Below, in pieces: positions 33,839-42,299 of a stretch of DNA of 64,000 nt; position 1 is the stretch's first letter, and every line of letters begins with the position of its first letter. The translations under genes were made by a program, and so were the position numbers. Source of the stretch: Acidobacteriota bacterium (GTDB lineage Bacteria; Acidobacteriota; Vicinamibacteria; Vicinamibacterales; UBA2999); NCBI GenBank assembly GCA_046727855.1, contig JBKPDL010000025.1:15697-79696 (forward strand). Reading direction: 5' to 3'. The notes beneath the pieces were generated by a model. That model ran no database searches, was not told where the DNA came from, and saw only the letters and a list, made by a program, of their open reading frames with translations.

Positions 33839-36262
33839 TCAGAAGGTCGTGCCGACGGCAAACCGGAACCCGCGCGGCGGCTGGAACGAGTCGCGGTAGA
33901 TGTTCCACGCGTAAATCAGCCGGAACGGAACATTGATCATCGGCAGCGTGACCCGCAGCTCGACACCGGTCGATGTCCGTAACTGTCGAAGATCGATTGG
34001 CTGGTTCTCGCTGTACGCCTGACCGGCATCATGGAAGGCAAGGGCGCGAACCTGCGGGAAGATGTCGTAGTAATACTCGGCGTTGAAGAGCACGAACTTG
34101 GTGCCGCCGGTGGCGACGCCGTTGGCGTTGGTCGGACCGACGGTTCGCACGTCGACGCCGCGAATTTGCGTTTCGCCGCCGAGAAAATAGCGCTGGTAGT
34201 AGGGGAGCTCGCCGCCGCCGTAGTTCCAGATGCGTCCCGCATTGGCGCGCAAGCCGAGCGCGGTCCGGCGCGAGACAGGAAAGTACATCACCGCTTCGAG
34301 CTCTGGTTTGATGAAACGATTCGTGCCGCCCAGCCATCCACCGGCGTATTGATACTTCGCGGTCAACCGCTTGCCGCTGCGCGGCGCAAATGGGTTGTCG
34401 ATCGTGTTGTGCACGATCGACGGCGTGATGCTGCTCTCGGTGAAACGGCCTTCATCGAGCAGGAACGCGTTGCTGTTCGAGCCCGTTTGCAGCGCTTTCT
34501 GCAGGTCGTCAGTCATTGCCGTTTCGATGACTTCGTAGCCATAGGTTGCGAAGATGCGCGTGAACCGTCGAATCGGAAAGCCCGAAGTGAGATTGAAGCC
34601 GCTGCGGACCTCGCTGTAATCCGTGGTGTTGCTGTTCACCGCGTACTCGAGCTTGCGCGAGTACACGCTCGACCCGGCTGTGATCGCGCGCCCGAACAGA
34701 AATGGTTCGGTGAACGCCAGCTGATAGGTTCGCGAACGCGTCCCGGTCTGGACTGCAACCGTCAGGCTTTCGCCTTTGCCGAGAAAATTGGCCGTGGTGT
34801 ACGAGAAATTGATGAACAACCCTTCGTACTGCGACGCCCCAGCCCCGAAGTTGAGCTGATTCCTGTTCTGCTCCTCCACCTTGATGCCGACGTCGACTTT
34901 GGCGTCAGTGCCATCGGCGTGCTTGACGTCGAGCGCGCGCTCGTCGAGCGGCTTGAAGTAGCCAAGCTGGTTGATCCGGCGCAAGCTGTATTTCAACGCT
35001 TCGGTGTTGAACACCCCGCCTTCGACCAGCGCGAGCTCGCGCCGAATGACCTGGTCGCGCGTGTGCGTGTTACCGGTAAAGTGAATGCGGTTGACGAAAT
35101 ACTGTTTCCCTTCGCTGATCTTCAGCACGATATCGACGACCGTGGAGCCGTCGTTACGAGGACGCAGATCAGGAAACGCGGTGAACTCGAAATAGCCGCC
35201 GGCTCCGTAGAGCTCCCGCGCGCGCTCGAGACCTTTGCGGATCCGCTCCTGGATGTACGTCTCACCAGGCTTGAGTTGAAAGAGCGGCTGCAGCGCTTCG
35301 CCTTTGAGCACCGTATTGCCTTCGAACGTGAAGTCGCCGACGGTGTAGCGGGAACCCTCGGCGACCTCGACCCGCAATTGCACCCATCGCGTTTTGCCGT
35401 CGCGGGAGTCATCCAGCGGCCTCAGCTGCGGCTGGCCGACCCGTGCGGTGATGTAGCCGTGGTCGTGGTAATGATCGATGACGTTCTGCGCGTCATCGCC
35501 AAACTTCTGCGCGTTGTACGCCCCCCGACGAGTCACGAGCGACAGAATGTTTTCTGGCTTGTTGCTTTTCAGGACCTTGGTCAGCTCGGCGTCGCTGAAA
35601 ACGCGGTTGCCGACGAATTCCACGTCGCGAATTGCGATCTTCGGTCCTTCAGATATCGTGAACGTGACGTGTGCCAGCTTCGACCCGCCCGGCAGCTCGC
35701 GTACTGAAGGCTTCACCTCCGCGTCCGGAAAGCCTTTTTCCGCGTAGAGCTCACGCACGATTCCGGCCACGCGGCGCAGCACACTGAAATCGAGGAACGA
35801 ATCGAGACGCAAGTCGATGCCCTTGTCTTTCAGTCGATCGGCAATGTCGGAGCGGGAGACCTTCGTTGCACCGTCGTAGTCGACGATCTTGATGCGCTGC
35901 CGTTCTTCCAGATGAAAGACGATGATCTTGCCGAGCGTGCCATTGCTGAACGGGTAGTCGTGTACTTCGATGGAAAGATCGTCGAGAAAGTTGGTCGCCC
36001 ACAGCCGGCGGAAGTCGGACACCACCAGGCGTTCCGTTTCGTCCGTGTAGAAGACCCACTGGTCACGCGACGGTTCGCTCGGTTTCAATTGGATGTAATA
36101 GAGATATGTTTGCGGCTCGATCGCCGAGGTGCCGCCTTGCTTGTCGAAGCAGAGCAGCATCGCCAGTACGACCGGTTTTGAGCCCGGTAGCGGCTCCTTT
36201 GCCGGAGCGGGTACGGTCATCCCACAAATCGTGGCGGCGGTCAGCAAGGTGGCGGCGAACAT
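33839..36262 (-). CDS. bamA: BamA/Omp85-family outer membrane protein assembly factor (POTRA repeats plus Omp85 barrel)
   Basis: 807 aa. POTRA-like repeats (IAIRDVEFVGNRVFSDAELTKVL, VNRIHFTGNTHTRDQVIRRELAL), barrel motifs (YFLGGETQIRG, FHDAGQAY) and C-terminal ...RFAVGTTF. Confidence 0.9.
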   Translation of the reverse strand: MFAATLLTAATICGMTVPAPAKEPLPGSKPVVLAMLLCFDKQGGTSAIEPQTYLYYIQLKPSEPSRDQWVFYTDETERLVVSDFRRLWATNFLDDLSIEVHDYPFSNGTLGKIIVFHLEERQRIKIVDYDGATKVSRSDIADRLKDKGIDLRLDSFLDFSVLRRVAGIVRELYAEKGFPDAEVKPSVRELPGGSKLAHVTFTISEGPKIAIRDVEFVGNRVFSDAELTKVLKSNKPENILSLVTRRGAYNAQKFGDDAQNVIDHYHDHGYITARVGQPQLRPLDDSRDGKTRWVQLRVEVAEGSRYTVGDFTFEGNTVLKGEALQPLFQLKPGETYIQERIRKGLERARELYGAGGYFEFTAFPDLRPRNDGSTVVDIVLKISEGKQYFVNRIHFTGNTHTRDQVIRRELALVEGGVFNTEALKYSLRRINQLGYFKPLDERALDVKHADGTDAKVDVGIKVEEQNRNQLNFGAGASQYEGLFINFSYTTANFLGKGESLTVAVQTGTRSRTYQLAFTEPFLFGRAITAGSSVYSRKLEYAVNSNTTDYSEVRSGFNLTSGFPIRRFTRIFATYGYEVIETAMTDDLQKALQTGSNSNAFLLDEGRFTESSITPSIVHNTIDNPFAPRSGKRLTAKYQYAGGWLGGTNRFIKPELEAVMYFPVSRRTALGLRANAGRIWNYGGGELPYYQRYFLGGETQIRGVDVRTVGPTNANGVATGGTKFVLFNAEYYYDIFPQVRALAFHDAGQAYSENQPIDLRQLRTSTGVELRVTLPMINVPFRLIYAWNIYRDSFQPPRGFRFAVGTTF

Positions 36263-37182
36263 CAGAACTTGATCCGGACGCCGAGCTCGCCCACAAGTCG
36301 CGTTTGCTGCTCATCATCCGCGCCGCGAGTCAGCCGCCACCCATAGCCGCCTTCGACAAAGACGCCGACACGCGAAGAGATCGCCGCCTGCAGCCCGCCC
36401 TTCCCGAGCACAGTTCCTGCATCGCGCTCGGCACGGTCAGTCAGTTGCGCGCGATACTCGCCGCCGGCGTAAATGCTCGCCATCGCGTGCGGTGTGAAGT
36501 AGTACGCAAGCCCTCCGTGCGCCTGCAACGAGGGCGCACCGGGTCCGGTTGCGGACGTGTCATCGTCTTGGTCATCGCCAAAGCTCGATGAGCCGATGAG
36601 ACCGCCTCTGATGGCAAACCTGTCGCTCACGAAGTGCGTGATGTCGACATGTAGCGTCACTTGCCAGGGGAACACGTCCTGGCTCGAAGTGAACTTGTCG
36701 ATCGAGCCAGACAGCCCAATCGACGTGACACCAGTCCCGCCGACGGCGCGCGGCTCGATGTCCTCTGTTTGGCCGTTCAAAAAGGGGTCTGACCCCTTTT
36801 CCGACCCCTTTTCCGACTGCACACCTTGCTCGGCGAGCGCCGGGGTCGCGGTGATAGCGAATGCCATCAGGACGAGGCGCAACAGATAGCCGATGTTTCG
36901 CACCGTCACGATGAGCGCGCGATGGCACCCCAGCTTTTTGCGAAGATGGCTGACGTGGACGTCGACCACGCGGTCGAGCGGGTGGAACGCGCGACCGAAT
37001 ACGGCGGTCATCAAGGTCTCGCGCGACACGACGCGCCCCGCGTGCTGCAGCAGGCACGCCAGGATTTCGTACTCCGTCGTGGTGAGATCGAGCGCGCGCT
37101 GGTTGACCGACAAACGTCTTGCCGCTGGCTCCAATACGATCGAGCAGCTTGAGCAATCGAGCTCGCGTTCCACAGGGGACAC
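36262..37182 (-). CDS. Orphan OmpR/PhoB-type winged-helix DNA-binding domain fused in frame to a TM/signal segment and an OM beta-barrel-like domain
   Basis: N-terminal ~100 aa are Trans_reg_C-like (LTTTEYEILACLLQHAGRVVSRETL...VDVHVSHLRKKL...VRNIGYLLR). Then LVLMAFAITATPALA and ~200 aa of amphipathic strands ending GELGVRIKF. The stop overlaps the bamA ATG (TGATG). Confidence 0.6.
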   Translation of the reverse strand: MSPVERELDCSSCSIVLEPAARRLSVNQRALDLTTTEYEILACLLQHAGRVVSRETLMTAVFGRAFHPLDRVVDVHVSHLRKKLGCHRALIVTVRNIGYLLRLVLMAFAITATPALAEQGVQSEKGSEKGSDPFLNGQTEDIEPRAVGGTGVTSIGLSGSIDKFTSSQDVFPWQVTLHVDITHFVSDRFAIRGGLIGSSSFGDDQDDDTSATGPGAPSLQAHGGLAYYFTPHAMASIYAGGEYRAQLTDRAERDAGTVLGKGGLQAAISSRVGVFVEGGYGWRLTRGADDEQQTRLVGELGVRIKF

Positions 37183-37242
37183 GCCTCCGTGCCGGTGAGC
37201 GTCGATGAGACGCCACCGGGGCTTTCAGGCGGGCCGGCATTG

Positions 37243-37286
37243 GTGATTGACGACGGATCGCCGCGCGTTTGTTAAGAATTGTTAAG
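37243..37286 (-). promoter_or_regulatory. Conserved upstream block (direct repeat CTTAACAA x2, then CGAT..CAATCAC) before the wHTH-barrel/bamA unit
   Basis: Minus strand: CTTAACAATTCTTAACAAACGCGCGGCGATCCGTCGTCAATCAC. Related to the blocks at 39316-39368 and 41239-41290. Confidence 0.35.
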
Positions 37287-38160
37287 CGCCGTCTGGACGC
37301 ACGCGCATCATCGCGCCGGGACGCATGTCTTCGATGCGGAAGTCGGCGGGAATCTTGAAGAGATCGGGCGACGGTTCGGTTCGCTGAATGTTGGTGAGGC
37401 GGTAAATGGTTTCACCAAATCTCGGGTCGAAGCGCCGCGTCATCACCACCACTTGCAGCTCCGGCGAATACCATCGCTCGATCACAATCTCAATTGCTTG
37501 CACGTTGCCGATGGCACCGGCCGGAATCGTCGTCGTCCGGCGCGTGCCTTCGACTTTCACACCCTCGAGAATTTTCGGCTCCAGTGTTTCCTCGACGGCC
37601 GATCCTGCGGGCATCACCGATGCCATCGACTGTGCTGCGATCACACTCGGCATGCCGCCACCGCTGACCGTCCCAGCCATCGGCGGCGGCGGAATGGACA
37701 CCTCGAAGGTTGGTTCCGTCGGTTCGGCGATCTTGTACTCGAGCATCGGAGCCTTGAACGGCTTCGCGCGGAACGCGACCTTGAGGTCGTAGTTCAGCGT
37801 GATGTGAACACCGCTTTCGGGATCGGTGATGGTCACGATGGGCTGTTGGTTTTTTGCGACGAACGTGCCCACCGCGATGCCCTGCTGTTCGCGGCGCGTG
37901 CGGCCCTGACTGTCGCGCGCCACGGTTGCCGACGTGCGCTGCTCGATCCGATTGCCGTCGGCGAGCACCTGCGTCATTTCGGTAACGGCGTCGGCTGTAT
38001 ACGGCGCATCCCGAACGACGCGTCCGACGTTGATCGGGTCCAGCGCGACGATGCCGATTTCCGGGGGGACTGGCGCGACCTGCGGCAGCACGTCCTGTGC
38101 CTCAGCCGATGTCACAGTCCAACCCAAAAGAATAGATGCCACTACGATGCGTTCGATCAT
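37282..38160 (-). CDS. Secreted protein of unknown family (third gene of the ECF sigma unit)
   Basis: Start at MIERIVVASILLGWTVTSAEA (signal peptide) with AGGAG upstream. The 175 Arg-rich codons upstream in the ORF track overlap the previous gene and are rejected. Confidence 0.6.
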   Translation of the reverse strand: MIERIVVASILLGWTVTSAEAQDVLPQVAPVPPEIGIVALDPINVGRVVRDAPYTADAVTEMTQVLADGNRIEQRTSATVARDSQGRTRREQQGIAVGTFVAKNQQPIVTITDPESGVHITLNYDLKVAFRAKPFKAPMLEYKIAEPTEPTFEVSIPPPPMAGTVSGGGMPSVIAAQSMASVMPAGSAVEETLEPKILEGVKVEGTRRTTTIPAGAIGNVQAIEIVIERWYSPELQVVVMTRRFDPRFGETIYRLTNIQRTEPSPDLFKIPADFRIEDMRPGAMMRVRPDGA

Positions 38161-38165
38161 GATCG

Positions 38166-38702
38166 CTACTCCTGTCCGGCTCGCACGTGAGAAAGATCGC
38201 GCGGCAGGCCGTCTTCGCCCACGAGCACATCCACGTCCACAACCCCTTCGGCGTCGGGCTCGAGCAGCACGAGGCCAAGCGTTTCGAGCGCTGCGCGTGG
38301 AATGCGAATGCGGACAACCTGCAATGCTTCGGGAAACTCCAGCGTGATGGTGGCAATCGTCGTGTCGCGGCTCCGCGACGAGGAATGCGGACGAACTGCG
38401 GCGATGACCGGTCTGTCCTGTCCGACGGCGAGCTTGAACGCGGCGGGTAGCGAGTGACTCGCCAGAGGGCGCGACGGCAACTTTGCCGATGGCGGCGCAT
38501 CGCCCGGCCGCCATGCCAAAAAGGCGAACACGAGCGTGGCCGCGGCTGCTACTAAACCTAGCTTGACTAGTACTATCTGCCGCTGTGACTTCGCGGCACG
38601 CGGTGTGCCTAGCGCGTGCAGTACGCGCGCTTCGAGCACCGCAGGTGCCTTGATCCGGATATCGTCCTGCTCGAACGCGCGCCACGCTGCGTCAAAGTTC
38701 AT
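38166..38702 (-). CDS. Single-pass membrane protein, putative anti-sigma factor
   Basis: MNFDAAWRAFEQDD..., one TM (IVLVKLGLVAAAATLVFAFLAW) and a ~100-aa extracytoplasmic part. The start overlaps the sigma gene stop by 11 nt. No zinc anti-sigma motif. Confidence 0.5.
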   Translation of the reverse strand: MNFDAAWRAFEQDDIRIKAPAVLEARVLHALGTPRAAKSQRQIVLVKLGLVAAAATLVFAFLAWRPGDAPPSAKLPSRPLASHSLPAAFKLAVGQDRPVIAAVRPHSSSRSRDTTIATITLEFPEALQVVRIRIPRAALETLGLVLLEPDAEGVVDVDVLVGEDGLPRDLSHVRAGQE

Positions 38703-39309
38703 ACAGCGCCCCCTTCTCGACGGTTGGGCGACGGAGCTCCGGTCGTGCGACACGCGCGAGGCGCTGCCGAAGCAACTGGCGCGCGCGATGAAGACGCGAT
38801 CGCACTGTCGAAATCGAAATGCGGGTTACCACTGCGGCGTCGGCATAGCTGAATCCATGCAGGTCGCACAGAAGAATGAGCTCGCGATAGCGAGGTGGAA
38901 GTTTCTGAAGCGCGCGTCGGACCTGGGATGCGAGCTCGATACCTGCGAGCGCGTCGGACGGATCATCGACGTAAGTAGTGTGCGCGCTGAAGGGGCTGAT
39001 GACGTCGAGTGAAAAGAATCGGCGCTCCTTGCGGAGCCGTTCGCGGCTCAGGTTGCGGACGATGCCATAGAGGTAGGTCGTGAACGTCGCGCGATCGGGA
39101 TCGTATTTCGCCAGATCGCGGAAGACGGCGACAAACACTTCCTGTGAAATGTCCTCGGCCGCCGCCGGACAGCCCATCATGGCCCGAGCAAATCGGTACA
39201 CGACGTGCTGATAGCGACGGAACACTTCCGTGAAGGCGTCGAGATCGCCGGATGCAGCGAGTTGCACCAGCTCGCCGTCGGAATCGAGCACTTCTACTTC
39301 GGACGCCAT
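38692..39309 (-). CDS. ECF (group IV) RNA polymerase sigma factor
   Basis: Sigma-2 (FTEVFRRYQHVVYRFARAMMG...AEDISQEVFVAVFRDL...TYLYGIVRNLSRERL) and sigma-4 (PPRYRELILLCDLHGFSYADAAVVTRISISTVRSRLHRAR). Confidence 0.9.
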   Translation of the reverse strand: MASEVEVLDSDGELVQLAASGDLDAFTEVFRRYQHVVYRFARAMMGCPAAAEDISQEVFVAVFRDLAKYDPDRATFTTYLYGIVRNLSRERLRKERRFFSLDVISPFSAHTTYVDDPSDALAGIELASQVRRALQKLPPRYRELILLCDLHGFSYADAAVVTRISISTVRSRLHRARQLLRQRLARVARPELRRPTVEKGALYEL

Positions 39310-39315
39310 TCAACG

Positions 39316-39368
39316 GTGATTGGCCGGAGCATCGAAATCGTTCCGGCGAGTTTGTAAAGGTTGTTAAA
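39316..39368 (-). promoter_or_regulatory. Conserved promoter-like block upstream of the ECF sigma gene
   Basis: Minus strand: TTTAACAACCTTTACAAACTCGCCGGAACGATTTCG-N10-CAATCAC. The 30-nt core is 26/30 identical to 41256-41285, with the same N10 spacing to CAATCAC. Confidence 0.45.
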
Positions 39369-39371
39369 TCT

Positions 39372-41210
39372 TCAGGGCCGATCCACGCTGGACTCGACGG
39401 GTTCAGCAAGCCGGGTCTCCGCTTTCATCCGCGAGTCGGTCGCGGCGGACAGAAACTGATCCCACGCCACGCGAATGCGATCCAGCTTCTCGATCGCGCT
39501 CCGCTCCCCCGTCCGACCATTGGAAACGACGTAGACAAACGCCTGCCGGTACACCCGCGGGCTGTCGGCAGCCGACGGCACGCGTGGGCCAACGACGGCA
39601 ATCACATCTTCGATGCGCACGTCACGCCGGATTCCACTGAAGGTCACGCCGACTTCGGGCTCGGATGCCGCAGTGCGAGGCTCCCTCAGATTCGTCGGAC
39701 TCTGCACGTAGAAAAAGGGTGGGACCTGCGTCTGATCGACGAGTCCCATCGCGTACTGATCGAGCAGGCTGTAGTGTTGCACGGCGGCTACCGTGCGAAA
39801 CGATCCGCTGCCCAGGTCTTCGATGTCGTTGCCTTCGAGCACGGATGCGTCGGAATCGAAAAAGAAGCTCCAGTGCGCGGCATCGCGGCCGAGGAGCGCT
39901 CGCGACACGCGTCCCATGTGATCGCGAAAATACAGGAACGCCAGCCATCGGTGCCCGATCTCCTGTCCCATCACGCTGAGCGTCGAATTCTCACCGAGGA
40001 ACACCTCGCGCGGCTCATCGGGATACTTCGACAGCGCATCCATGTTGCACAAACTTTGCAGCGGCCCGGCGCTGCCGTATTCCGCCGAATAATCGAATAC
40101 CGGCAAGTTGAGACCTTGAATCTGATTGGCGACCGAAATTTCATACGCAAACGCATTAGTGAGCAACTTTTGGTCGGTGAAAATGACGATGTTGTCGAAC
40201 GCGTCGCGATGTGTAGCAAGGAAGCGGCGTGCGACAGCGACGGTGTCGAGATCGGACTGCGAGGTGAAGCGTTCGCCGAGCGCTGAGGAGCCTGCCGCAA
40301 TCGATTCCTGGGCAGTGAAGTCCACCGGCAGAAATTGCGTCGTATTTCCAGGAGAAACGCCTACCACCGCTTCGCGAATCGTCGTCCGATTCGAGAATTG
40401 AATATCGATCGGGCCGGTCTGGTGGAGTGTCACTTGAACCGTCGCGGTCTCGCGCGTGCCGTATTCCCGAACGTTGCACCACGTCACAGTCAGTGCGCGG
40501 TCATCGGCAAACGACCAGATCTGTCCGCCGGCCGACGGATTCAGATCGGCGAAGAGCGGCGCCACGCGTGGCGCACCTGTCAAGAGCCGCGAAACGGATC
40601 GAGCCGAGGTCGCGACATCACCCTCGCCGAACGTCAAGTTGCCGTCGGAGTTCACAAACACGTGGTCGTGCGGCTGACCAAAAAACGAAAACGTAAATGG
40701 CAACGCAACGCGGCGAACATCGTCGTCGTCCATCGTGAGACCTGTGCCGAGCGTACGCCTGAATTCGTACGCGATCCGTGACACGTCATAGCCGCCGCTG
40801 TCGTTGGGCGTCAGCCGCAGACCAACATTGCGCAAGTCGAACGGATTCGGCGCCATGACGAGATCGCCGCGATCCTGCAGAACGGCGATCTCACCGACAT
40901 CCTCCGTCAAACGGGTGTCGGCAGTCTTCATCGACAGCCGACCCTGTGCAACGGCTGCTCGGTGGTTCCACACGCTATCGAGGTGGCTCCATCGGTCATC
41001 GTGGTCGAGGGGAGAGGTCTTCGCCGGGTTTTCTGGCGCGCGCTGAGAAGTGCCGCGTGCGCTCGGATCCACGGCACTTGACGCTGTTGCGCATGGGTCG
41101 GTCGATTGCGCACGCACGGGCGTATGAAGGTCAGTCCGAAAAACAATTGCCGCGACCGCGCTCAGCATGGCCGCTCGGATATAAATCGGTGGTGTCATCG
41201 TCAACAGCAT
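39372..41210 (-). CDS. Large secreted protein of unknown function (degenerate QEIGH metalloprotease-like motif)
   Basis: About 612 aa from MLLTMTPPIYIRAAMLSAVAAIVF (signal). Contains FSFFGQPHDHVFVNSDGNLTFG and MGQEIGHRW. I recognise no family with confidence. Confidence 0.65.
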   Translation of the reverse strand: MLLTMTPPIYIRAAMLSAVAAIVFRTDLHTPVRAQSTDPCATASSAVDPSARGTSQRAPENPAKTSPLDHDDRWSHLDSVWNHRAAVAQGRLSMKTADTRLTEDVGEIAVLQDRGDLVMAPNPFDLRNVGLRLTPNDSGGYDVSRIAYEFRRTLGTGLTMDDDDVRRVALPFTFSFFGQPHDHVFVNSDGNLTFGEGDVATSARSVSRLLTGAPRVAPLFADLNPSAGGQIWSFADDRALTVTWCNVREYGTRETATVQVTLHQTGPIDIQFSNRTTIREAVVGVSPGNTTQFLPVDFTAQESIAAGSSALGERFTSQSDLDTVAVARRFLATHRDAFDNIVIFTDQKLLTNAFAYEISVANQIQGLNLPVFDYSAEYGSAGPLQSLCNMDALSKYPDEPREVFLGENSTLSVMGQEIGHRWLAFLYFRDHMGRVSRALLGRDAAHWSFFFDSDASVLEGNDIEDLGSGSFRTVAAVQHYSLLDQYAMGLVDQTQVPPFFYVQSPTNLREPRTAASEPEVGVTFSGIRRDVRIEDVIAVVGPRVPSAADSPRVYRQAFVYVVSNGRTGERSAIEKLDRIRVAWDQFLSAATDSRMKAETRLAEPVESSVDRP

Positions 41211-41238: not shown

Positions 41239-41290
41239 GTGATTGATGCGAATGGCGAAATCGTTGCGGAAAGATTGTAAAGGTTCCTTC
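41239..41290 (-). promoter_or_regulatory. Conserved promoter-like block upstream of the large secreted protein gene
   Basis: Minus strand: GAAGGAACCTTTACAATCTTTCCGCAACGATTTCG-N10-CAATCAC. Confidence 0.45.
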
Positions 41291-41369
41291 GAACATTGAC
41301 AGGCCGCATCGCCGTCCCACGCGACCGCACTGCTAGGCCGGCGCACGCAACTCTGCACGCGGCGCAACC

Positions 41370-41600
41370 ACGTACGTTCCTCACGTGGGTTCCTTACGCA
41401 GGTTCCTTACGTAGGTTCACGAGGGTTCCGAACGTGGGTTCTTCGCGGAGTTCACGTGGCGTTCGAACTTCCGGAAGGAACTTCCGCAAGGACTCCCGTA
41501 ACGAATCCCGTGAACGTCCGTAAGGAACGTCCGTCAGGAACCCCGTGAACCTACGTAAGGAACCCATTTGAGGAACCTACGTTAGGAACACCCCGTGGGT
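41370..41600. repeat. Palindromic array of about 19 thirteen-nt GGAAC-core units (about 9 in one orientation, 10 in the other)
   Basis: GTTCC/GTTCA units start at 41376, 41389, 41402, 41415, 41425, 41438, 41450, 41461. The centre is GTTCGAAC + TTCCGGAA (41461-41476). GGAAC/TGAAC units start at 41477, 41490, 41502, 41511, 41524, 41537, 41546, 41559, 41572, 41585. Perfect 21-bp IR at 41401-41421 / 41544-41564. Confidence 0.9.
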
Positions 41601-41642
41601 GCGCGGCCGAACTCCGCCGCAAAGCGTTTCGTATCAAGCAAT

Positions 41643-42299
41643 ATGGCGCGGGCGCGCTCAAGGTGGACGATCGTGGGCGTGGTCTTGGTGATTGCCGCGA
41701 TCGGCGGCTGGTTTATCGTCGCGCGCATCAGTGCTGCCAGTGCGCGAAGCGAGTCGGCTCGGCTTGCCACCGTGCTCGGGCTTCGCGAGGGCAGTCGCGT
41801 TGCGGACGTCGGGGCGGGGAAGGGGGAGTACGCGCTGCAGCTGGCGCGGCTCGTCGGGCCGACCGGTCATGTTTTCGCCACCGAGATCGACAACAAGCGT
41901 CGCCGTCAAATTCAATCCGCGGCCGCGAGCGCTGGACTTCAACACCTGTCCGTGGTCGAAGCGCGTGAGGTCGATACCGGCCTCGAGCGCGATTGCTGCG
42001 ACGCGATTCTGATGCGAGGCGTCTATCACCATTTCACGCGGCCTGTTGAAACCAACGCGAGCCTTCGTGGCGCACTGCGGCCCGGTGGTCGCCTGGCCGT
42101 CGTGGACTTCCCGCCGGGATGGTTCCTGTCGACATTCTTCCGAGTAAAGGGCGTGCCCGCGAACCGTGGAGGACATGGCGTGCGCGCCGAGGTGGTCATC
42201 GAGGAGCTCGAGGCGGCGGGTTTCAGTCTCGAGCGCCGTCTTGATAAATGGGACGGACGAATGTATTGCCTCGTGTTCCAGAAGAAGGCCGGCTCGTAG
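41643..42299 (+). CDS. Class I SAM-dependent methyltransferase with N-terminal membrane anchor
   Basis: TM segment WTIVGVVLVIAAIGGWFIV, SAM motif I VADVGAGKGEY, and later DAILMRGVYHHF. Confidence 0.8.
   Translation: MARARSRWTIVGVVLVIAAIGGWFIVARISAASARSESARLATVLGLREGSRVADVGAGKGEYALQLARLVGPTGHVFATEIDNKRRRQIQSAAASAGLQHLSVVEAREVDTGLERDCCDAILMRGVYHHFTRPVETNASLRGALRPGGRLAVVDFPPGWFLSTFFRVKGVPANRGGHGVRAEVVIEELEAAGFSLERRLDKWDGRMYCLVFQKKAGS

Follow-up and report, generated by a model that had tools for sequence, protein, structure and literature searches.

A palindromic array of 13-nucleotide units between two divergent Vicinamibacterales genes, a probable recent and strain-specific copy of a dispersed repeat family

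The array and its setting

The 64,000-nucleotide (nt) stretch analyzed here, called the window (contig JBKPDL010000025.1, an Acidobacteriota bacterium of the order Vicinamibacterales), carries an unusual array in the spacer between two divergent genes. At 41368-41597 about 19 copies of a 13-nt unit are arranged as two inverted arms. The genes on either side encode a 612-amino-acid (aa) protein and a 218-aa protein, and relatives call the same two genes; the divergent arrangement stated in an earlier note on this DNA is upheld. The array is a member of a dispersed family of 13-nt repeats and is absent from all close relatives that were compared. With a probability of roughly 60%, it is a recently inserted, strain-specific copy of that family and not a dedicated regulatory site. 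The main features of the locus are as follows.

39372-41210, minus strand: gene of the 612-aa protein, without a Pfam domain; it heads the operon 612 aa - extracytoplasmic function (ECF) sigma factor - 178 aa - 291 aa - winged helix-turn-helix (wHTH) protein - Omp85
41643-42299, plus strand: gene of an S-adenosylmethionine (SAM)-dependent methyltransferase, divergent from the operon
41286-41605: strain-specific segment of 320 nt that holds the whole array; relatives have 41-43 unrelated nt here
41286-41367: non-repeat left part of the insert; it opens with a solitary unit-like 13-mer, GGTTCCTTCGAAC (41282-41294, across the junction), and holds CTGTCA
41368-41465, minus strand: left arm, eight units pointing left, GGAACGTACGTGG, GGAACCCACGTGA, GGAACCTGCGTAA, TGAACCTACGTAA, GGAACCCTCG, AGAACCCACGTTC, TGAACTCCGCGA and CGAACGCCACG
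41461-41476: centre, where the orientation flips; palindromes GTTCGAAC (41461-41468) and TTCCGGAA (41469-41476)
41464-41597, plus strand: right arm, 10-11 units pointing right, with a 35-nt higher-order repeat (9+13+13)
41401-41421: left copy of a perfect 21-nt inverted repeat (partner 41544-41564)
41544-41564: right copy of the same inverted repeat (partner 41401-41421)
41359-41372: extra inverted repeat GCGGCGCAACCACG outside the array; it pairs with 41594-41607 and lengthens the hairpin
41594-41607: its partner, CGTGGGTGCGCGGC, from the sequence and the folds

The cores of the left arm (GTTCC, GTTCA, GTTCT or GTTCG), read from the sequence, start at 41376, 41389, 41402, 41415, 41425, 41438, 41450 and 41461. 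Those of the right arm (GGAAC or TGAAC) start at 41477, 41511, 41524, 41537, 41546, 41559, 41572 and 41585, with degenerate units at 41490 and 41502. Eight units are thus on the minus strand and 10-11 on the plus strand; most are 13 nt long and a few are 9-12 nt. They are contiguous, without spacers, and non-coding. Tandem Repeats Finder (TRF) assigned a period of 13 to the array and, in the right arm, also the higher-order period of 35 nt (2.5 copies). A repeat search returned inverted arms of 81 nt with 73% complementarity and of 36 nt with 89%, and direct families at 13-nt spacing. All of this agrees with the earlier description of a ~230-bp palindromic array of ~19 units, whose listed core positions, flip at two 8-bp palindromes, perfect 21-bp inverted repeat and outward-pointing GGAAC cores are present in the sequence. 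An irregularity common to both arms, a short unit of 9-10 nt and then TGAACCTACGTAA GGAACC, marks them as mirror copies. When up to two mismatches are allowed, the two-unit pattern GGAACNNNCGTNAGGAAC occurs 10 times at the array and once elsewhere in the window, where 0.48 matches are expected window-wide. Outside the array, the bare GGAAC core shows no enrichment in the window (151 occurrences, where 135 are expected).

The region 41355-41610 folds as a single long hairpin of ~250 nt. Fold energies were -154.6 kcal/mol for the plus-strand RNA (z -11.9), -148.7 for the minus strand (z -11.2) and -84.2 for DNA (z -10.1), which bears out, on both strands, the hairpin or cruciform potential proposed earlier (z -10 to -12). 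The inverted repeat reaches 14 nt past the array on each side, with 12 of the 14 positions of 41359-41372 and 41594-41607 complementary, and on the right the hairpin ends at the insertion junction. The array could extrude as a cruciform and a transcript, if made, would form a hairpin of ~250 nt. An Rfam scan of the window gave no match at gathering score (a sub-threshold MIR820 at 37.5 bits against 196 is spurious). With no Rfam family match and no description found in the literature, the earlier view that the array, lacking spacers, fits no standard feature type still stands.

Filled and empty sites

Seven contigs of the same species, each from an independent metagenome, were retrieved through exact-protein look-up. 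One of them (L102) is 99.2-99.3% identical to the window and the others (L107-L112) are 94-95.5% identical. None of the seven has the array, and the blastn alignments all break at the same two points, 41285 and 41606. In place of the 320-nt segment the relatives have a short allele of 41-43 nt, ACGTGCTCGG[C/T]GC[ACGCG]TCGTCGCCGTCTCAGACGA[A/T]TTGAC[A/G]CC. Alignment of the window with the relatives' alleles showed no convincing homology between them and no target-site duplication. Because both the 99% and the 94-95% relatives have the short allele, it is the ancestral one. A metagenome scan for further alleles with a 24-mer from the conserved left flank gave no matches.

The window differs from L102 at 33 positions, without clustering at the junctions. 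The nearest differences are at 40717 and 41828, the left and right flanks being identical over 568 and 221 nt, respectively. Import of the long allele by homologous recombination from a divergent donor was rejected on this ground, and since the differences are not clustered at the junctions the long allele arose in place. Both junctions lie in unit-like sequence, between AAAGGTT and CC on the left and between CC and GAACTCC on the right, which suggests, from the letters at the breakpoints, microhomology-mediated joining at both. The block at 41282-41290, which the earlier note took for a AAGGAACC core within a conserved promoter-like block, is in fact the left junction; AAAGGTT is conserved flank and CC is insert. 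The notion of a recombinogenic border was the closest in spirit, the site being an indel polymorphism.

The insert was probably copied whole from an older array and did not grow on site, because its units are heterogeneous and it has a 35-nt higher-order repeat, mirror arms and ~80 nt of non-repeat DNA at its left end. The proposed event would then be a replacement in situ through illegitimate recombination, with the junctions in unit-like microhomologies. An old, heterogeneous, mirror-duplicated array and ~80 nt of foreign non-repeat DNA, together the segment 41286-41605, would have taken the place of the 41-43 nt spacer between two divergent core promoters.

An assembly artefact, whether a false palindrome or a chimeric junction within the metagenome-assembled contig, is the least probable of all the explanations considered. 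It would account for a filled site that occurs in one assembly only, and arrays of the family often lie at contig ends in other metagenome-assembled genomes (MAGs), so assemblers are disturbed by them. However, the segment lies in the middle of a 92.7-kb contig and both of its flanks are collinear with the seven independent contigs. The junction overlaps, at most 9 nt, are too short for a k-mer graph chimera, and the diverged units and higher-order repeat match the structure of the natural family.

A dispersed repeat family

The family came to light when one genome of each species was scanned for runs of three units in a row (GGAACNNNCGTNAGGAACNNNCGTNAGGAAC). This gave at least 100 loci and, among the matches listed, nearly all are in about seven Vicinamibacterales-type Acidobacteriota MAGs, with many loci per MAG and at least about 30 from one of them. 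The chance expectation for 23 specified bases is, by our own estimate, well below one. The array-rich genomes are as follows.

Array-rich MAGs: Vicinamibacterales CTOTU39262; RIFCSPLOWO2_12_FULL_67_14b; E14_maxbin.140; VAR_79_metabat_490; GB_HAYS_MAG_00008
Further array-rich bins: one labelled 'Solibacteraceae' and one labelled Bifidobacteriaceae

The last of these, the 'uncultured Bifidobacteriaceae' MAG ERP124720_co1_137, has many arrays (CAYJPQ01 loci L004, L015, L022, L026, L028 and others). Its label looks wrong, since the flanks of its arrays are 75-88% identical in nucleotides to acidobacterial MAGs. Single loci were found in Streptomyces, Frankia and a few others. The Streptomyces and Frankia loci have one intergenic 13-nt array each, of a similar unit (GTTCCTCACGGAT; GTTCCTGACGTCC; L055:1360-1416, L100:4268-4350, L040:680-752), and the L100 array ends 5 nt from a stop codon. 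A scan of 2.9 M viral contigs for three units gave no matches.

A logo of 195 units outside the seed matches gave the consensus GGAACC-YY-CGTG-N. Positions 7 and 8 are 79-86% pyrimidine, with G at only 5-7%, and position 13 is free; 12 of the 13 positions are thus constrained. Literature searches found no description of the unit sequence, of Acidobacteria or Vicinamibacteria repeats of this kind, or of such 13-bp repeats. The related literature yielded analogues only, the TAACTGA repeats (PMC4679880) and STAR elements. The family is apparently undescribed so far.

The family is unevenly spread and turns over fast. In the lineage of the window it is rare: the 64-kb window has one array, and ~63 kb of sequence from relatives with 68-78% protein identity has none. 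Elsewhere, the array at locus L079 is missing in relatives whose flanking gene is 95% and 88% identical; these relatives have a different synteny and no array, and are informative on turnover alone. Downstream of the deacylase/beta-lactamase-like gene, where L079 has its GGAAC array, L115:4835-5068 and L116:2700-2773 have GC-rich hairpin repeats (GACTCGCGSCCTTCGGSCGCTCGTG, and longer stems).

Other observations bear on the repeat content of these genomes. The same two-arm array, with flanks 98-99% identical, is found in opposite orientation on two contigs of GB_HAYS_MAG_00008 (L012:112-274 and L030:358-493), as either a duplicated region or assembly redundancy. At L042:3348-3594, orthologous to the GGAAC arrays of L011 and L068, there is a different two-arm array of 245 nt with GATTG units on the left and CAATC on the right. 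Its architecture is like that of the GGAAC arrays and its unit is unrelated. The array-rich MAGs also hold many intergenic arrays of 7-9-nt units, often near gene ends, with units such as TTCTGCC/GGCAGAA, GGCTTGG, CCTAGGCAC, TCTTAAC, TGAGGGCT and CACTTCT (L011:3331-3417, L042:140-197 and 512-548, L036:6729-6845, L056:1230-1300, L050:4988-5025 and others). There are too few arrays per family to judge the polarity of these short-unit families.

Dispersed copies raise the question of an ordinary miniature inverted-repeat transposable element (MITE), mobilized in trans by a transposase, with the arms as terminal inverted repeats. The earlier note had named dispersed copies with target-site duplications as the sign of such an element or of a minisatellite. 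Many dispersed copies do exist in related genomes; target-site duplications do not, unlike in an ordinary MITE. The size of ~250 nt, the inverted arms, the extra 12/14 inverted repeat at the very ends, the presence/absence polymorphism between near-identical strains and the dispersed copies in related genomes would all suit a MITE. But instead of a target-site duplication there is a loss of 41-43 nt of target, and the left breakpoint lies ~73 nt beyond the hairpin. Moreover, 79 of 98 family arrays have a single arm and no inverted partner, and the arms within one array are usually not mirror images. The copies have only the 13-nt unit in common; there is no element-length consensus, no conserved termini, and the outer flanks are unrelated. 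The extra 12/14 inverted repeat at the ends is confined to the window copy. A MITE is therefore a very improbable identity for the array, only slightly better placed than an assembly artefact.

Polarity and gene boundaries

The statistics of the family were taken from 98 arrays, with genes from a codon-usage caller and arms defined by a core-spacing rule with a four-unit threshold. Forty-one arrays are a single '+' arm and 38 a single '-' arm; 17 are '-+', one is '-++' and one '--'. No '+-' array has both arms at the threshold, and the partial exception, L016:5696-5829, is a '+' arm followed by three '-' cores. Two-arm arrays thus read 5'-(GTTCC...)n(...GGAAC)n-3', as the window copy does. An arm usually has ~4-14 units and spans 50-180 nt. 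Only 4 of the 98 arrays lie inside a called open reading frame (ORF).

The outer end of an arm, which is the 3' end of its GGAAC strand, adjoins the neighbouring gene. Of the 57 single arms whose neighbours on both sides were called, 34 have an outer gap of at most 10 nt; uniform placement in the spacer would give 15, and a count of 34 was never reached in 200,000 simulations. The inner gap is that short in 13 of 57, where 15 are again expected. The median gap is 6 nt at outer ends and 78 nt at inner ends. The invariable '-+' order of the two-arm arrays follows from this outward rule of single arms.

More than half of the outer ends (57 of 107) face a stop codon, that is, the 3' end of a gene. 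At 40 of these 57 the gap is between -3 and +10 nt, with a median of 4. The 8 nt that precede the first GTTCC remain unit-like, and stop codons peak in that outermost unit; TGA replaces TCA at -8, and TAG occurs at -3, immediately before GTTCC. Because the consensus unit in the GTTCC direction has no stop in any frame, these stops are genuine gene ends. At several convergent pairs (L079, L084, L030, L046) the spacer is filled from stop to stop.

At start-facing arms the last unit is often followed by TAnnnT and, 6-12 nt later, an ATG, an arrangement like that of a leaderless promoter. TAnnnT lies beyond 18 of 50 start-facing arms as against 11 of 57 (p=0.08), which is a trend only. Genes adjoining arrays with TAnnnT 5-7 nt before the ATG and no Shine-Dalgarno sequence were noted at L005:2190-2211, L028:3995-4015, L065:985-1003, L095:949-975 and window 41632-41645. 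The pattern of letters suggests that leaderless messenger RNAs are common in these Acidobacteria. At other loci, the GTG in the unit makes false ORF extensions at -9, -22 and -35 nt.

Units of the same arm resemble each other more (10.6-10.9 of 13) than do units of opposite arms (10.0; p=0.009), an exception being the window. Inner and outer units of single arms do not differ significantly in decay (p=0.09 at best), and no polar growth is claimed. Slippage or gene conversion would keep the units of each arm alike, and an array would be tolerated only as far as the first essential signal (stop codon, -10 box or start codon).

The same regularities might point to more than tolerated DNA. The arrays could be a new class of polar gene-boundary element, either punctuation read by a dedicated factor or a self-extending repeat, and the window a fresh colonization of an array-free spacer. 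As a whole this is a tentative alternative, unlikely, though to be kept in mind.

Its punctuation form, unlikely when taken by itself, holds that transcription-unit boundaries are marked by one sequence-specific factor, for which each array is a multi-site platform. The factor might be a DNA-binding protein reading 11-12 conserved bases every 13 bp. Alternatively, it might bind RNA and act on transcripts as they leave the gene; these would carry (GGUUCCUCACGRRG)n, with a pyrimidine patch every 13 nt that a Rho hexamer might use and a Shine-Dalgarno-like GGAGG or GAGGG patch. In the window such an element would insulate the two divergent promoters from each other. First, a single rule serves gene ends and gene starts, with the units pointing at the boundary. 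Second, the constraint on 12 of 13 positions, including the pyrimidine pair with its 5-7% of G, is more than slippage alone needs, and the arms keep to the usual range of sizes. Third, arrays sit where relatives have a hairpin+TTTT terminator-like sequence (L061 versus L059) or another palindromic array (L042). Fourth, spacers between co-directional genes are fully filled at L075, L058 and L031, so the arrays are transcribed there.

Against punctuation, no candidate protein was identified. Rho loading sites are expected to be C-rich and G-poor, whereas the unit has equal G and C. The Shine-Dalgarno-like patch is lost in the window units (CGTAA, TACGTAGG). The window copy is dispensable in all seven close relatives, and turnover at L079 is fast. 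An array that faces a gene end is also oriented oppositely, relative to the transcription of the adjacent gene, to one that faces a gene start, so two activities would be needed.

A selfish repeat that creeps by self-extension is a distinctly weaker candidate. Here an asymmetric nuclease or recombinase would cut on the 3' (outer) side of a unit, repair from neighbouring or ectopic units would convert the flank to a new unit, and arms would grow outward until they met indispensable sequence. Such a process accounts for the polarity, the sharp outer ends at stops and -10 boxes, the loose inner ends, the homogenization of each arm and the outward-facing pairs. The window event, a replacement and not a simple insertion with junctions in unit-like microhomology, would also fit. 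But the model has no candidate enzyme, decay in single arms is not measurably greater at the inner ends (p=0.09 at best), the non-repeat stretch of ~80 nt in the window insert is unpredicted, and arrays are nearly absent from the window genome and its relatives.

Genes and signals around the insert

The signals on the two sides of the insert are as follows.

41274-41302, minus strand: sigma-70-like promoter CTGTCA-17-TACAAT facing the 612-aa gene, a consensus match only
41609-41645, plus strand: conserved right flank and possible leaderless promoter; GAACTC (41609-41614), 17 nt, TATCAA (41632-41637), 5 nt, ATG (41643)

CTGTCA-17-TACAAT was the one site found in the promoter scan, where 0.2 were expected. 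Its -10 box, TACAAT, belongs to the conserved flank and its -35 box, CTGTCA (41297-41302), to the insert, and the left junction lies 3 nt upstream of TACAAT on the minus strand. The insert may thus happen to supply a -35-like element to the promoter of the 612-aa gene. The right junction lies 3 nt upstream of GAACTC, in a flank that is conserved in L102 and L107-L112. GAACTC-N17-TATCAA-N5-ATG, with the ATG at 41643, is a possible leaderless promoter of the methyltransferase gene, judged from its boxes and spacing. Everything between the two divergent core promoters, and nothing more, would have been replaced by the insert, which fits the habit of the family of ending at essential signals. At this locus the insert would act mainly as spacer DNA that moves the two promoters ~280 bp apart.

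The 612-aa protein starts at ATG 41210 in all relatives. In the NCBI version, P0132 (645 aa), otherwise identical to the ORF of the window, the start is at ATG 41309, inside the insert; the annotated N-terminus (MRPVNVRR...) is probably spurious. The operon that this gene heads (33839-41210, minus strand) is conserved and encodes the 612-aa protein (>2,800 homologues, in Vicinamibacterales wherever named), the ECF sigma factor, the 178-aa and 291-aa proteins, the wHTH protein and an Omp85/POTRA protein. The order of these genes is kept in relatives L101, L107 and L111. The wHTH (Trans_reg_C) protein has no receiver domain, and its gene contains a perfect 12-nt tandem repeat, GACCCCTTTTCC, in 2.2 copies (36791-36817). 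The GC content of the window is even, at 59-67%, and a search of the window for transfer RNA (tRNA) and transfer-messenger RNA (tmRNA) genes found none.

The presence of a sigma factor gene in the left-hand operon had led to the proposal that the array is tied to it, as overlapping GGAAC-N16-CGT promoters that fire outward or as a decoy that titrates the ECF sigma factor (38692-39309). The classic ECF promoter consensus is GGAAC at -35 and CGT at -10, 16-17 nt apart. Any two adjacent units give AAC-N16-CGT, the ECF -35/-10 spacing, and the units point outward. However, GGAAC-N16-CGT arises automatically from a 13-nt period with GGAAC and CGT in the unit and is hence uninformative. The array is absent from all seven same-species contigs, which keep the operon, and over half of the family's outer ends (57/107) face stop codons. 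A tblastn search with the local ECF sigma factor gave no matches in 686 kb around the 98 other arrays, and the boxes beyond start-facing arms, in the weak trend given above, are of the TAnnnT, housekeeping-sigma type. The link to the ECF operon is therefore not supported, and promoter or decoy function is highly improbable. The copy would not be a dedicated regulatory site of that operon.

Comparison with known elements

The closest analogues of the family are the cyanobacterial short tandemly repeated repetitive (STRR) sequences, the TAACTGA arrays of Beggiatoaceae and the repetitive extragenic palindromic (REP) sequences with their bacterial interspersed mosaic elements (BIMEs). Sets of TAACTGA direct repeats in Beggiatoaceae, Cyanobacteria and Bacteroidetes lie mostly just upstream of start codons (PMC4679880). 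The STRR heptamers and the TAACTGA repeats (PMC4679880) resemble the present family in their short head-to-tail units, their many intergenic loci per genome a few nt from gene boundaries, and their patchy distribution among lineages; in both cases function and spreading mechanism are unknown. The 7-9-nt arrays of the array-rich MAGs, described above, are of this type too. The STRR and TAACTGA repeats differ in that their unit is 7 nt long, whereas that of the family is 13 nt with 12 constrained positions. The family further has outward-facing inverted pairs, about half of its outer ends at stops, and one polarity rule at both types of boundary.

REP sequences and BIMEs are abundant, non-coding and intergenic, often at gene 3' ends; inverted copies form hairpins, and their presence varies between close strains. 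The family shares these traits with the REP, BIME and REPIN elements of Enterobacteria and Pseudomonas: intergenic non-coding abundance, position at gene 3' ends, hairpin-capable inverted copies and strain polymorphism. In contrast, the REP unit is a 20-40-nt imperfect palindrome in alternating orientation, and the unit of the family is a non-palindromic 13-mer with one orientation per arm. The Correia and RUP MITEs are alike in size range, inverted ends and polymorphic insertions. Unlike them, the family has no target-site duplication and no element-length consensus and consists mostly of single arms, and the window event deleted its target.

DNA uptake sequences (DUS) and uptake signal sequences (USS) are short lineage-specific motifs that are over-represented between genes and form inverted pairs downstream of ORFs, where the pairs make terminators; they occur singly or in pairs and are also frequent within genes. 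The family likewise has a lineage-specific motif between genes, often inverted, but it forms tandem arrays, and GGAAC is not enriched outside the window array. With ECF promoters (GGAAC-N16/17-CGT) the likeness lies in motif and spacing, which adjacent units reproduce; the copy is not conserved with the operon and the arrays show no ECF sigma association.

Several identities were rejected. An iteron origin was set aside on the flanking genes (the 612-aa protein and the methyltransferase, not rep or dnaA) and on composition, the region being 62% GC and lacking both an AT-rich stretch and a skew switch. A clustered regularly interspaced short palindromic repeat (CRISPR) array would have repeats of 23-50 nt with unique spacers, as against contiguous 13-mers without spacers. 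An intrinsic bidirectional terminator does not match a copy between two gene starts; no terminator-like site was found in 41286-41605, and most family copies are single-arm and form no hairpin. Others considered and dropped were integron attC sites, whose polarity is the reverse (AAC...GTT); the LexA box of Alphaproteobacteria, GAAC-N7-GAAC, as against a spacing of N9 in the array; CsrA sponges, since the GGA motifs here are base-paired within the hairpin; Rho loading sites, as there is no C-over-G skew; and parS.

Weighing the interpretation

Several points weigh against a neutral or selfish repeat that was copied whole into this site. The filled site is seen in a single assembly. Copying from elsewhere is deduced from the make-up of the insert; a donor or sibling of the window array was not found, and a metagenome scan with the 21-mer of the centre returned one chance match, in an AT-rich coding region. 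Arrays occur at orthologous positions across species (L003/L053, L005/L042, L011/L068, L067/L086), which could reflect selection, in a sample that is biased toward array-carrying loci. Across the family, polarity this strict and ends so close to stop codons and -10 boxes look more organized than a neutral minisatellite, and may reflect function or a directed mechanism. Finally, the gene calls at the loci came from the codon-usage caller, so the start codons are approximate.

The boundary-element and self-extending readings are nevertheless ranked below the neutral or selfish repeat, because the copy is dispensable in all close relatives and turnover is fast elsewhere.

Significance

Vicinamibacteria rank with the most abundant bacteria of soils, and their genetics is almost unexplored. 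The arrays fill spacers up to stop codons and -10 boxes, and so provide a map of the limits of essential signals in these genomes. They are also a likely cause of contig breaks and mis-annotated starts in acidobacterial MAGs, of which the NCBI start of the 612-aa protein within the insert is an example. With the filled site in the window and an empty one in a relative at 99.3% identity, the locus is a tractable case of the spread of a short tandem repeat. Should the arrays prove to have a dedicated binding factor or enzyme, genome biology would gain something new; should they have none, the family would be a clean example of selection limiting selfish DNA.

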